Shown here piece after piece: positions 252 to 5,287 of a DNA stretch of 5,287 bases. Made by a program: the position numbers and the translations under genes. How positions within the stretch are numbered: position 1 is the first letter of the stretch; each line of letters begins with the position of its first letter. Source of the DNA: a virus (taxonomy: Duplodnaviria > Heunggongvirae > Uroviricota > Caudoviricetes); IMG/VR virus record IMGVR_UViG_2693429774_000006, one strand, 5' to 3'. The notes below the pieces were generated by a model. That model was not told the origin of the DNA and searched no databases. It saw only the letters and a list, made by a program, of their open reading frames with translations.

Positions 252-761
252 TCACAGCAAACCAAATGAAGCACCGAGGCCAGTCACGGTATCAACTGCA
301 CTCGCCATCGCAGGATTAGCCTGTAAACGGGCCTGCAATGAAACAGCCGCCAGCGCCATCAGTCGTGTTACAGAATTAATGCTGCTGATAGCATCACGAC
401 GACCGGCACAGGTTTTTACATCGCCAGACACCGCACCTGCAGCAACACGCCCGATCTCTGCGGTTGCACTCATGACGTAATGTGGCAGTTTCTCTTTTGC
501 CACCTCATTAATCGGAACACATGGCAGACAATGAATCTGTGCCAGAAAACCGTCTACCAACGTTGAATCTTCAGTCAGATCGGTAAGCAACCAGATTTCT
601 GGTGCGGTGAGCTGATGCGGTTGATCTGGATTGAGTTTGTTTCGCAGTGTCTGAACATTCATTCCTGCACGTTCTGCCAGCTTTGCCATATTGTGACGTA
701 GTGCAAAAGCTCTACAGGCTTCATCAAAATGCGGATGTTTGGAAATCTTGTAATCAAACAT
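252..761 (-). CDS. cII: Phage CII-like transcriptional regulator (186 CII / CP76-type)
   Basis: 169-aa ORF with start preceded by AGGGGG about 6 nt upstream. Length matches 186 CII as I recall it (169 aa), and it sits immediately downstream of the Cox/Apl-like gene in a 186-type early operon. Family assignment is from memory, not a search. Confidence 0.75.
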   Translation of the reverse strand: MFDYKISKHPHFDEACRAFALRHNMAKLAERAGMNVQTLRNKLNPDQPHQLTAPEIWLLTDLTEDSTLVDGFLAQIHCLPCVPINEVAKEKLPHYVMSATAEIGRVAAGAVSGDVKTCAGRRDAISSINSVTRLMALAAVSLQARLQANPAMASAVDTVTGLGASFGLL

Positions 762-793: not shown

Positions 794-1042
794 TTAGTCA
801 CCAACGATGACATTAAAGTTGAAATTGGATTGGCCCATGTTTTTCCTGACTTGTTCCTTTTTGTACTCAAGGTAACGTATACATACTCTGTCTTTCGATT
901 TTTCTTTTCTTTCCAAGAATTTAGCGAGTTTACCATTATGAATCATTTGATATACCGAACCGCGAGAGCGGCCTTCCCATTCCGCGAACTCAGCTGGTGT
1001 CGCCATCACTTTTGGTACACGAATTGAAATGTCGTTGCTCAT
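794..1042 (-). CDS. Cox/Apl-like excisionase and early-promoter regulator (small HTH protein)
   Basis: 82-aa ORF. The segment VMATPAEFAEWEGRSRGSVYQMIHNGKLA resembles the P2 Cox N-terminal HTH region as I remember it (…AIPYQEFAKLIGKSTGAVRRMIDKGKLP…). It is divergently transcribed from the CI-like repressor and is the first gene of the rightward-type operon, as apl is in 186 and cox in P2. Confidence 0.7.
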   Translation of the reverse strand: MSNDISIRVPKVMATPAEFAEWEGRSRGSVYQMIHNGKLAKFLERKEKSKDRVCIRYLEYKKEQVRKNMGQSNFNFNVIVGD

Positions 1043-1161: not shown

Positions 1162-1794
1162 ATGATACAAGTAAAAGCTGGCGAGAATACAGGGGGAAGA
1201 GAGGCTATCCATAGGCTAATGGCAGCCTATGATTTCAAGTCCAGACAGCAACTTTGCGATCACTTGGGCGCATCAAAAAGCACTATGGCAAACAGATACT
1301 TAAGAGATAGTTTTCCTGCAGAATGGGTGATTCAGTGCGCTTTGGAAACAGGAGTTTCTTTACTGTGGCTAACTACCGGACAGGGCGATCCAGGTTCAAA
1401 CATTGACCCTAAAAAAAATATCAATTCCGTGAACTCTAGCAAAGTTAAACCTCTTTCGGAGCTTGTATCTCCTGAAATTGACAAGGCAACTCTCAACGGA
1501 GGTTTGCTGATCGATGCTGGAAAAGCAATCATTGATAGCAGCATACTCCCCTCAGACTCAAGCAACCTGCTGCTGGTGACTACTTCTGGTGATTCTTATT
1601 TAATAGATCGCAACCAAACACCACCAGTAAATGGTACGTGGTTAGTGGACATCGACGGGATAAAAAGCATTGTAAAATTGACACGACTCCCGGGAAACAG
1701 ATTAGTAGTGCATCAGGATGATTCATCGTTTGAGTGCGAACTGGATGACATTGAGGTAATAGGCCGCGCACTGAAAATCATTAAGAGCCTTTGA
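1162..1794 (+). CDS. cI: CI-type prophage repressor (186 CI-like N-terminal HTH domain, with an S24/LexA-like signature in the C-terminal part)
   Basis: 210-aa ORF. The N-terminal segment …RYLRDSFPAEWVIQCALETGVSLLWLTTGQG resembles the 186 CI HTH domain as I recall it. The C-terminal part contains GDSY (Ser145) and VKLTRLPGN (Lys172), resembling the Ser/Lys motifs of LexA and UmuD. Its stop TGA (1792..1794) lies 1 nt before the integrase ATG. Confidence 0.85.
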   Translation: MIQVKAGENTGGREAIHRLMAAYDFKSRQQLCDHLGASKSTMANRYLRDSFPAEWVIQCALETGVSLLWLTTGQGDPGSNIDPKKNINSVNSSKVKPLSELVSPEIDKATLNGGLLIDAGKAIIDSSILPSDSSNLLLVTTSGDSYLIDRNQTPPVNGTWLVDIDGIKSIVKLTRLPGNRLVVHQDDSSFECELDDIEVIGRALKIIKSL

Positions 1795-1795
1795 T

Positions 1796-2809
1796 ATGAC
1801 CATCAGAAAACAGCCGAACGGAAAGTGGTTATGTGAATGCTACCCAAACGGGCGAGATGGCAAACGCGTACGCAAACAATTTGCGACGAAAGGCGAAGCC
1901 ATTGCGTTTGAGAATTTCACCATGGACGAGGTAAACAAGAAACCTTGGCTGGGAGAAAAGGAAGATCGGCGACACCTATCAGAATTAATTGAGCTGTGGT
2001 ATTCCCTGTATGGTCAAACACTCGCAGACCCCAAGCGACTCATGGCGAAACTTGGAATTATCTGTAATGGTCTGGGCGATCCCATCGCTTCAGAGCTGAC
2101 TGCCGGTGACTTTACGAAATACCGCGAAGCACGGCTAAAAGGTGAAGTGCGAAATGAAGATGGCACGCTGATGTCGCCCGTTAAGCCCCGCACGGTAAAC
2201 CTTGAACAGCGCAATCTATCATCTGTGTTCGGTACATTAAAAAAACTAGGACACTGGTCAGCACCAAACCCGCTGGCAGGACTTCCGACCTTCAAAATTG
2301 CCGAAGGTGAGCTGGCTTTTCTTTCCACGGACGAAATCAAGCGCCTGTTGGCGGCATGTGCTGAATCTCAAAGCCCTAGCTTACTAATGATTGCAAAAAT
2401 ATGTCTGGCTACTGGCGCACGGTGGAGTGAAGCCGAAAATCTGCAGGGCCATCAAATATCGAAATACCGAATTACTTATACAAAAACAAAAGGCAAGAAA
2501 AACCGTACTGTGCCGATATCTCAGGATCTGTATGATGAACTCCCCAAAAACAGAGGAAAGTTATTCACGCCATGCAGAAAAGCCTTTGAGCGGGCAGTAA
2601 AGCGGGCCGGTATTGACCTACCGGAGGGCCAATGCACCCACGTGCTTCGCCATACATTCGCCAGTCACTTTATGATGAACGGCGGAAACATACTGGTACT
2701 GCGTGATATTTTGGGTCATGCCGATATAAAAATGACCATGATTTACGCCCACTTTTCGCCCGATCACCTTGAAGACGCGGTGACTAAAAATCCTCTTTAT
2801 AATTTGTAG
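1796..2809 (+). CDS. int: P2/186-family tyrosine integrase (site-specific recombinase)
   Basis: 337-aa ORF, the same length as P2 Int as I recall it. N-terminus MTIRKQPNGKWLCECYPNGRDGKRVRKQFATKGEAIAFE parallels P2 Int MAIKKLDDGRYEVDIRPTGRNGKRIRRKFDKKSEAVAFE. C-terminal catalytic signature is present: ATGARWSEA, HVLRHTFASHF (HxxR) and MIYAHF (Tyr nucleophile). Tightly coupled downstream of cI. Confidence 0.92.
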   Translation: MTIRKQPNGKWLCECYPNGRDGKRVRKQFATKGEAIAFENFTMDEVNKKPWLGEKEDRRHLSELIELWYSLYGQTLADPKRLMAKLGIICNGLGDPIASELTAGDFTKYREARLKGEVRNEDGTLMSPVKPRTVNLEQRNLSSVFGTLKKLGHWSAPNPLAGLPTFKIAEGELAFLSTDEIKRLLAACAESQSPSLLMIAKICLATGARWSEAENLQGHQISKYRITYTKTKGKKNRTVPISQDLYDELPKNRGKLFTPCRKAFERAVKRAGIDLPEGQCTHVLRHTFASHFMMNGGNILVLRDILGHADIKMTMIYAHFSPDHLEDAVTKNPLYNL

Positions 2810-2821
2810 TGGAGACCTATT

Positions 2822-4342
2822 GTGATTCAAAAATTAGATATTCAATCTGATGCGGTTGCAAAGTTAAGAATGGATGCTATTCGTTCAGAAATCCAAGGTT
2901 ATTCCCCTGATTTATTTATCGAATTCTGTATGCAATATAACTTACAAAAATTTGAAGATAATATCCACATGTTACGACACATGCCTTGGATTGTTAATTT
3001 ATGTCTAAAGTGGTCTGCGTCAGTAACTGGCAAGAATAAAAAATTCAAAATCCTCGATAAAAATCAAGCAATAAAACTCTTCCAAAAAACTTATGAAACC
3101 TTGAACATTATTCCTATCGGTCTTGAGAGGAAGAATGGCATGCATTTCTTCATTAGAAATAATCTATACCAACAAGGAATCTACCAGAAAATTGACGCTC
3201 TAAACACAATTAGCAGACAAGTCTTTCTATTTTCAGAACTTGAAAAAAACCATAAAATAAAGAAAAGTTTTTTTACTATCACGAATGTATCTATCGAAGA
3301 CTTTCTTAAGCTATCTTACATATTAATAACTCACATAACAGAAGAGCATCCCGTGAGAAAAATGAATGTAGATACATTTACTATATTATTTGACATCATT
3401 CCTAGAAATACCATTGAGAAATTTCTTGATGCAATATCAATAAATTACAATGAACTATCTACATTTTGCAAATCAAAAACCTATGATAAACCTTTGCTTG
3501 AATACTACTCATCATCACCTTTTCTTGAAAAACCATTAATAAAAAAAGGTTCAGAGTATTTTCAGATACACACACAACTGACTTCAACAAGCATACAGAC
3601 GTTCATATATGATCTTTTAAGAAGAACTGATGCCGAGAAGTTCATGGATAGCTTTGGAAATGTATTTGAAAATGCACTGGAATTAATACTAAAAGAAAGC
3701 GAAATTGATTTTCATAACGAAAAATACCTTAAAGAACGACTACCTAAAGATAATAAAGTAGTTGATTATTTCATTCCACATACTGAGGCAAATATTTTCA
3801 TTGATGCTAAAGGCGTTGAGATACACCAAAAAGGCATGGTAACATTACGCCCTGAGGATATTGCAGGAAAAATAAAGAAATCGGTATTAAAAGCAATCGA
3901 ACAATCTCACGAAGTTAATCGAGAAATATACTCTAATGAGCGAATAATAGCTCCATTCAGGGCTAACTCATATATCATTTGCATTACATATAAAAACCTT
4001 TTCTTAGGCAATGGTAGTATCCTAGCTAATACTTATGCTAAAGATGAGATGAATAAGATATATGACAAGTTTAAACATAACTATCATATCCCTACAGAGA
4101 ATATTTTTTGTCTATCATTTGAAGAGTTTGAATATCTCATTGCATCATGCAAAAGGTTTAAAATTCCGCCTCATGAAGTCTTGCAATCTGCAGTTGAAAA
4201 GAACAAAAAACCATCAAGTGCTGCTTTCCTATTTTCCCACCATATAGAGGACTATTTTGATAGAGTAGTCAATTCAGTCATAGTCAATGAGGCAGGCATT
4301 AAAATGGTAGATTCTATTATCAATAAATTAAAGCCTGAATAA
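2822..4342 (+). CDS. Large hypothetical cargo protein (506 aa) between the integrase and the attachment site; candidate defence or lysogenic-conversion protein with a putative PD-(D/E)xK-like nuclease motif
   Basis: Uninterrupted 1521-nt ORF with GTG start at 2822 and GGAG at 2811..2814; it begins 12 nt after the integrase stop. Strongly AT-rich: hand counts of sampled 60-nt lines give about 23-35% G+C, against about 62% in a sampled integrase line. The AT richness makes long chance ORFs unlikely, since random AT-rich sequence is stop-codon-rich. Motif E283 (FENALELIL), D315 (VVDYFIP) and D328-A-K330 (IFIDAKG) has PD-(D/E)xK-like spacing. No Walker A motif and no family I recognise. Confidence 0.85.
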   Translation: MIQKLDIQSDAVAKLRMDAIRSEIQGYSPDLFIEFCMQYNLQKFEDNIHMLRHMPWIVNLCLKWSASVTGKNKKFKILDKNQAIKLFQKTYETLNIIPIGLERKNGMHFFIRNNLYQQGIYQKIDALNTISRQVFLFSELEKNHKIKKSFFTITNVSIEDFLKLSYILITHITEEHPVRKMNVDTFTILFDIIPRNTIEKFLDAISINYNELSTFCKSKTYDKPLLEYYSSSPFLEKPLIKKGSEYFQIHTQLTSTSIQTFIYDLLRRTDAEKFMDSFGNVFENALELILKESEIDFHNEKYLKERLPKDNKVVDYFIPHTEANIFIDAKGVEIHQKGMVTLRPEDIAGKIKKSVLKAIEQSHEVNREIYSNERIIAPFRANSYIICITYKNLFLGNGSILANTYAKDEMNKIYDKFKHNYHIPTENIFCLSFEEFEYLIASCKRFKIPPHEVLQSAVEKNKKPSSAAFLFSHHIEDYFDRVVNSVIVNEAGIKMVDSIINKLKPE

Positions 4343-4474
4343 GTCTCCCAAGCAAAACCAGTGGCGGCATTTTGGCGGCAGAGCATTAAAAATGCGTAAA
4401 ACAGACAAACACAAAATAATACTAACACACTGATTTTAAACATAAGTTCATGTTTTTGTTATAGTAAAAATGGT

Positions 4475-4519
4475 ATGTAGGAATTTCGGACGCGGGTTCA
4501 ACTCCCGCCAGCTCCACCA
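4475..4519 (+). other. Partial copy of the 3-prime end of tmRNA (ssrA), about 45 nt ending in CCA; att core repeat at the prophage/island junction
   Basis: ATGTAGGAATTTCGGACGCGGGTTCAACTCCCGCCAGCTCCACCA matches the 3-prime terminus (T-arm and acceptor stem) of enterobacterial ssrA as I recall it. Sequence upstream of 4475 has no resemblance to the 5-prime part of ssrA, so this is a fragment, not a full gene. Confidence 0.8.
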
Positions 4520-4554
4520 ATTTTTGATATATTGAAGTTCAGTGAAGTCTATCA

Positions 4555-4587
4555 AGCCCGCATGGAACCAGCCTTGCGGGCTTTTTT
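4555..4587 (+). terminator. Rho-independent terminator-like hairpin with T-run, downstream of the ssrA 3-prime fragment
   Basis: AGCCCGCA (4555..4562) pairs perfectly with TGCGGGCT (4575..4582) across a 12-nt loop, followed by TTTTTT (4582..4587). Confidence 0.6.
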
Positions 4588-5258: not shown

Positions 5259-5287
5259 GCGAGGTTCTTGTTTTCAAATTGTTCCGG

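Follow-up and report, generated by a model that had tools for sequence, protein, structure and literature searches.

The GAPS1 family of anti-phage defence proteins was defined from Vibrio parahaemolyticus WP_005477165.1, a single protein whose C-terminal domain is a PD-(D/E)xK phosphodiesterase (Mahata et al., bioRxiv 10.1101/2023.03.28.534373). The defence of Vibrio GAPS1 against T7 is abolished by each of the substitutions D313A and K328A, and the mutations by which T7 escapes lie in the capsid protein Gp10. Gp10 together with Vibrio GAPS1 causes a reversible, non-lethal growth arrest that is bacteriostatic, not bactericidal. Three E. coli homologues (EJP5250929.1, WP_152927281.1 and WP_194242909.1) protect against coliphages, and deletion of the native chromosomal homologue in E. 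coli isolate ZH142-A sensitises this isolate to phage (all bioRxiv 10.1101/2023.03.28.534373). Another single-protein PD-(D/E)xK defence system, Upx of Salmonella enterica (PDB 9wuf), is 1272 aa long, senses the phage terminase, degrades single-stranded DNA (ssDNA), and is reported to have a middle domain and, besides its main nuclease site, a minimal second one (PMC13099982, PMC13601566). The stretch of DNA analysed here, referred to as the window, consists of 5,287 nucleotides of a Caudoviricetes virus (IMG/VR record IMGVR_UViG_2693429774_000006), and covers a P2/186-like prophage at its left end. The product of the gene at 2822-4342, a prophage moron, very probably belongs to the GapS1 (GAPS1) family, and the catalytic centre of its PD-(D/E)xK phosphodiesterase domain would be made up of E283, D315, D328-x-K330, E300 and Q361. 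The family, its active site, inactive mutants, phage trigger and dormancy have been published already, and the NCBI pipeline names this gene gapS1. The gene, the predicted domains of its product and the residues of the proposed active site are as follows.

2822-4342 (stop codon included), plus strand: gapS1, predicted single-protein anti-phage defence gene, 506 aa, GTG start
2822-3631, plus strand: N-terminal all-helical domain, residues ~1-270, presumed sensor or regulatory module
3632-4159, plus strand: predicted PD-(D/E)xK nuclease core, residues ~271-446
4160-4339, plus strand: C-terminal helical tail, residues ~447-506, with predicted helices 450-460, 471-478 and 486-503
3668-3670, plus strand: E283, acidic residue in helix alpha1, E in 95% of 153 sequences and in 278 of 286
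3719-3721, plus strand: E300, acidic residue after strand beta1, E in 97% of 153 sequences and invariant in alignment A1
3764-3766, plus strand: D315, putative catalytic Asp at the start of strand beta2, present in all 153 sequences of one set and in 285 of 286 in the other
3803-3811, plus strand: D328-A-K330, (D/E)xK motif in strand beta3 (D328 at 3803-3805, K330 at 3809-3811)
3902-3904, plus strand: Q361, Gln in helix alpha2 (344-371), present in all 153 sequences of one set and in all 286 of the other

Residues 20-474 of the product matched the entire NCBIfam profile NF047931, antiphage_GapS1 (positions 1-455 of 455), scoring 428.5 bits (E 3.1e-128) where the cutoff is 320. Like Vibrio GAPS1, the window protein is a single protein of ~500 aa with its PD-(D/E)xK domain in the C-terminal half, a match to the whole profile above the cutoff, and an invariant D...(D/E)xK pattern with a 15-residue spacing. 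No partner gene for gapS1 was found between the integrase gene (int) and the phage attachment (att) site. Of 5426 complete E. coli genomes, 15 contain the identical gene, called gapS1 in RefSeq, that of E. coli E308 among them, and the cluster formed at 90% identity has 285 members from Klebsiella, E. coli and Enterobacter. Klebsiella phage records carry the GapS1 protein at 99.4% identity. The protein also matched PHROG 14259 (E 2.5e-165), which is a PHROG without known function. The homologue EJP5250929.1 (P0210), for which protection has been demonstrated, is 58% identical to the window protein, and the first 125 residues of WP_152927281.1 are identical to those of a protein (P0004) that is itself 77% identical to the window protein. 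By analogy with these E. coli homologues (58% and ~77% identical) and with Vibrio GAPS1, the allele in the window would be expected to provide anti-phage protection.

The original prediction had recognised a PD-(D/E)xK active-site signature in this protein, formed by E283, D315 and D328-A-K330 in that order. Numbered from the GTG at 2822, these residues occupy 3668-3811 exactly as claimed, with E283 within FGNVFENALEL, D315 within KVVDYFIP, and D328 and K330 within NIFIDAKG. The spacings are 32 residues from E283 to D315 and 13 from D315 to D328. Taken alone and without conservation, this pattern is weak and statistically unremarkable, as a hydrophobic-D...hydrophobic-(D/E)xK core occurred in 16% of 5000 shuffles of the GapS1 protein, and in 13% together with an upstream E. 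A similar motif could thus have arisen by chance in a structural or regulatory prophage protein that is not a nuclease, and the Pfam searches, in which nothing above threshold was found for the GapS1 protein or 17 relatives (sub-threshold hints to TPD and SfsA only), would agree with such an origin. Conservation of the residues across relatives shows that the motif is genuine. When 1.84 billion representatives were searched with a profile, 1554 family members were obtained at E<=0.001, nearly all of ~500 aa (490-530) and aligned end to end, and conservation was assessed in 153 full-length sequences with a median identity of 26% and in a second full-length set of 286. Among these highly diverged relatives, D315, K330 (153 of 153 and 286 of 286) and Q361 are invariant, and only D or E occurs at position 328 (118 D and 35 E in the first set, 248 D and 38 E in the second). 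The D and the K lie 15 residues apart in 283 members of the 286-sequence set. E300, which is also acidic and conserved, had been missed in the original prediction, and Q361 probably belongs to the active site. In the site so composed, E283, E300, D315 and D328 would ligate metal, and K330 and Q361 would complete it.

The published GAPS1 mutants bear directly on this assignment. No Asp and Lys other than D315 and K330 are both invariant and set at the 15-residue spacing seen across the family, and in sixteen family members the D and the K fall exactly at positions 313 and 328. This comparison strongly suggests that D315 is the equivalent of GAPS1 D313 and K330 that of K328, the two residues whose mutation leads to loss of function. 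Family conservation, the predicted fold described below, which like its matches is that of a nuclease, and the mutants of the equivalent residues thus support the active-site reading, and the conservation and fold effectively refute a chance motif, the probability of which is very small.

A confident AlphaFold2 (AF2) model built from 18 homologues had a predicted local distance difference test score (pLDDT) of 87.9 and a predicted template modelling score (pTM) of 0.88. In the model, residues 271-446 form the canonical alpha-beta-beta-beta-alpha-beta core of PD-(D/E)xK nucleases. Its first half consists of alpha1 (271-293, with E283), a short beta1 (~298-299), beta2 (316-318, with D315 at its N-terminal edge) and beta3 (325-330, with D328 and K330), and its second half of alpha2 (344-371, with Q361), beta4 (384-389), alpha3 (398-414), beta5 (428-432) and a helix at 433-446. 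In Foldseek searches the model matched solved PD-(D/E)xK nucleases, and these matches vanished when residues 1-250 were searched alone. Hence, they belong to the C-terminal half. Structure prediction and fold comparison, which had been proposed as a check, therefore placed a nuclease core around the flagged residues. The ~280 N-terminal residues, regarded originally as a possible sensor or regulatory region, are predicted to be for the most part an all-helical domain, which is presumed to serve as a sensor or regulator. The ~170 C-terminal residues, which had been left unassigned, are for the most part the remainder of the nuclease fold, and only residues ~447-506 form an additional helical tail, which is poorly conserved (mean column conservation 0.19-0.41). 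Judged by sequence, no GapS1 structure is deposited in the PDB, and when the PDB was searched by HMMER, whether with the sequence alone or with either of two family profiles, only noise was returned (tropinone reductase, PilX, DivIVA).

The best matches of the nuclease half were N.BspD6I, R.BspD6I, HindIII, Bse634I, Cfr10I, FokI and PspGI, and the PD-(D/E)xK effectors Can2 and Card1 were matched more weakly. As the top matches are restriction enzymes, and one family member bears the UniRef name 'Restriction endonuclease', the protein might be taken for an orphan restriction endonuclease (Type II/IIS/IV-like) that depends on sequence or modification, cuts incoming phage DNA directly and is not triggered by capsid. 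However, likeness in the PD-(D/E)xK fold says nothing on shared regulation. The closest resemblance of the core, which is to the Type IIS catalytic domains of FokI and BspD6I, is one of fold at 10-14% sequence identity, and GapS1 includes no DNA-recognition domain of that type and has no partner methyltransferase. Experiments on the GapS1 family instead point to regulation by a phage protein, given that the escape mutations lie in the capsid gene and that capsid protein alone, in the absence of phage DNA, arrests growth. A direct-cutting endonuclease is therefore highly improbable. A restriction-modification enzyme was likewise rejected because no methyltransferase adjoins gapS1, the neighbours of which are an integrase gene and the att site; the sole methylase is encoded by a Dam-like gene of the prophage, ~3 kb away in the early operon. 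Shedu (SduA/DUF4263), which the original prediction had mentioned as an example of a defence effector with this fold, was also considered. No Pfam or PADLOC match to Shedu was found for the GapS1 protein, the likeness is limited to the superfamily core, and the N-terminal domain differs, so that membership was rejected.

A search with residues 1-250 revealed a specific structural resemblance between the predicted N-terminal domain of GapS1 and Upx. The window protein was not assigned to Upx itself, as it has 506 aa as compared with a three-domain protein of ~1270 aa, and a comparison with the 9wuf sequence gave no HMMER profile match at E<=10, nor did PADLOC give a match. The two systems also differ in their triggers, Upx sensing terminase and GAPS1 sensing capsid. 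Homology between GapS1 and Upx is plausible from the model but unproven. The N-terminal helical domain might, somewhat short of an even chance, be a true homologue of a module in the much larger Upx, in which case the two proteins would share a broader lineage in which a single-chain sensor of phage proteins is fused to a PD-(D/E)xK nuclease, with GapS1 as a compact form. Neither Upx paper was among the results of a full-text literature search for GAPS1, and the link may therefore be unreported.

Several points weigh against the assignment to an active GapS1 defence protein. PADLOC 2023 gave no match for the GapS1 protein, a blank that fits the later description of the family. The equivalence with D313 and K328 derives from the invariant columns and the 15-residue spacing. 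A homologue search seeded with a Photobacterium protein found other Vibrio GapS1 proteins, though not V. parahaemolyticus GAPS1, and the clusters of ten members with D313/K328 numbering contained only Pseudomonas or unnamed proteins. The trigger of this allele may be other than T7 Gp10. Finally, the target of cleavage is given as unknown by the authors of the GAPS1 study, who name the domain a phosphodiesterase (bioRxiv 10.1101/2023.03.28.534373), and a literature search found no biochemical report on any GapS1 protein.

These statements on the target would accommodate a protein of the same family, with the same active site, that acts on RNA (tRNA, rRNA or mRNA). Such a substrate would explain a reversible dormancy, and the bacteriostatic, not bactericidal, outcome of GAPS1 activation is in keeping with it. 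Can2 and Card1, which appear among the weaker fold matches, are reported to cleave RNA. Nonetheless, the top nuclease-fold matches are DNA endonucleases and the structural relative Upx acts on ssDNA, and an RNA substrate, although a live alternative to DNA, is considered less likely than not. For the GapS1 protein of the window, the following course of events is proposed. A lysogen would express GapS1 together with the cI repressor and the integrase. GapS1 would then be activated by the major capsid protein of an infecting phage, as has been shown for T7 Gp10 with Vibrio GAPS1, probably via the N-terminal helical domain, and the predicted metal-dependent nuclease site would cleave nucleic acid. 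The cell would enter a non-lethal growth arrest in which phage propagation is blocked, as shown for Vibrio GAPS1 and an E. coli isolate.

Like Vibrio GAPS1, the gene in the window lies on a mobile element, but this is a P2/186-like prophage, with gapS1 next to int, and not a GMT island. The other features of the window are as follows.

Minus strand: Fil-like open reading frame
252-761, minus strand: CII
794-1042, minus strand: Apl/Cox-like gene
1162-1794, plus strand: cI repressor (Pfam Phage_CI_repr and Phage_CI_C; RefSeq annotation)
1796-2809, plus strand: int, tyrosine integrase (Pfam Int_N and Phage_integrase; RefSeq annotation)
2811-2815, plus strand: GGAGA resembling a Shine-Dalgarno sequence, 2 nt past the int stop codon and 6 nt upstream of the GTG
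4475-4520, plus strand: att-site core, 46 bp duplicating the 3' end of ssrA (transfer-messenger RNA, tmRNA)
From 4686, cut by the window end at 5287: second integrase (Arm-DNA-bind_3 and Phage_int_M)

The gapS1 gene starts 12 nt downstream of the int stop codon, and the position of the Shine-Dalgarno-like sequence relative to int suggests that gapS1 may be co-transcribed with cI and int. A promoter scan around the gapS1 start returned 11 weak promoter-like sites as compared with 9.1 expected, no better than shuffles. The GC content of gapS1 is ~31% (28-35%), while that of the flanking prophage genes is 45-53%, and this base composition indicates that the cargo is of foreign origin. Upstream of cI, in the intergenic region between it and the divergent apl/cox-like gene, two 22-nt direct repeats, GATYCAATATTTGATACRYCAA, occur at 1098-1119 and 1128-1149. 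They are 86% identical with a spacing of 30 nt, and may be operator or Apl/CI binding sites.

The intact ssrA gene (27185-27547 in L002), located at the far end of a 34.5-kb prophage of E. coli E308, has a 3' end identical to the 46 bp of the att core. This prophage carries the identical gapS1 and is complete and P2-type. As the att core marks the end of the prophage, no further prophage gene follows gapS1 before the junction. Rfam tmRNA gave a partial match at 4475-4520, covering the 3' end only, and an ARAGORN scan of the window turned up no intact tRNA or tmRNA. Beyond the att core, at ~4553-4587, lies the native ssrA terminator. A sub-threshold match to Rfam IsrM, a Salmonella island small RNA, was seen at 4444-4587 (44.8 bits, with a gathering score of 376). 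It spans just the two ends of the model, most internal positions being skipped, including the terminator hairpin, and most likely reflects merely shared sequence flanking ssrA. Matches of other E. coli genomes to the window end at 4521. The second integrase is part of a neighbouring island inserted in tandem at ssrA, and among the top E. coli matches just 3 have the flank containing it, the others diverging after 4521.

The Klebsiella phage ST437-OXA245phi4.1 (Peduoviridae) carries a GapS1 allele that is 49% identical, at 3983-5533 of its sequence (L003), directly downstream of int. This suggests that the slot downstream of int is a conserved cargo position occupied by strongly diverged alleles. 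The E308 prophage includes a second cargo gene, at 2873-4525 of L002, which is annotated as encoding a P-loop NTPase fold protein and has the replication genes on one side and the portal gene on the other, in the region of the P2 old/tin defence hotspot.

The case of gapS1 illustrates that a genuine catalytic site can be pinpointed by reading a sequence only, and it adds little new biology. The resemblance of the N-terminal domain to Upx suggests where the sensing mechanism is to be sought. Located directly after cI and int at ssrA, gapS1 is lysogenic-conversion cargo, and alleles that are 49-100% identical occupy the same slot in phages of Klebsiella and E. coli.
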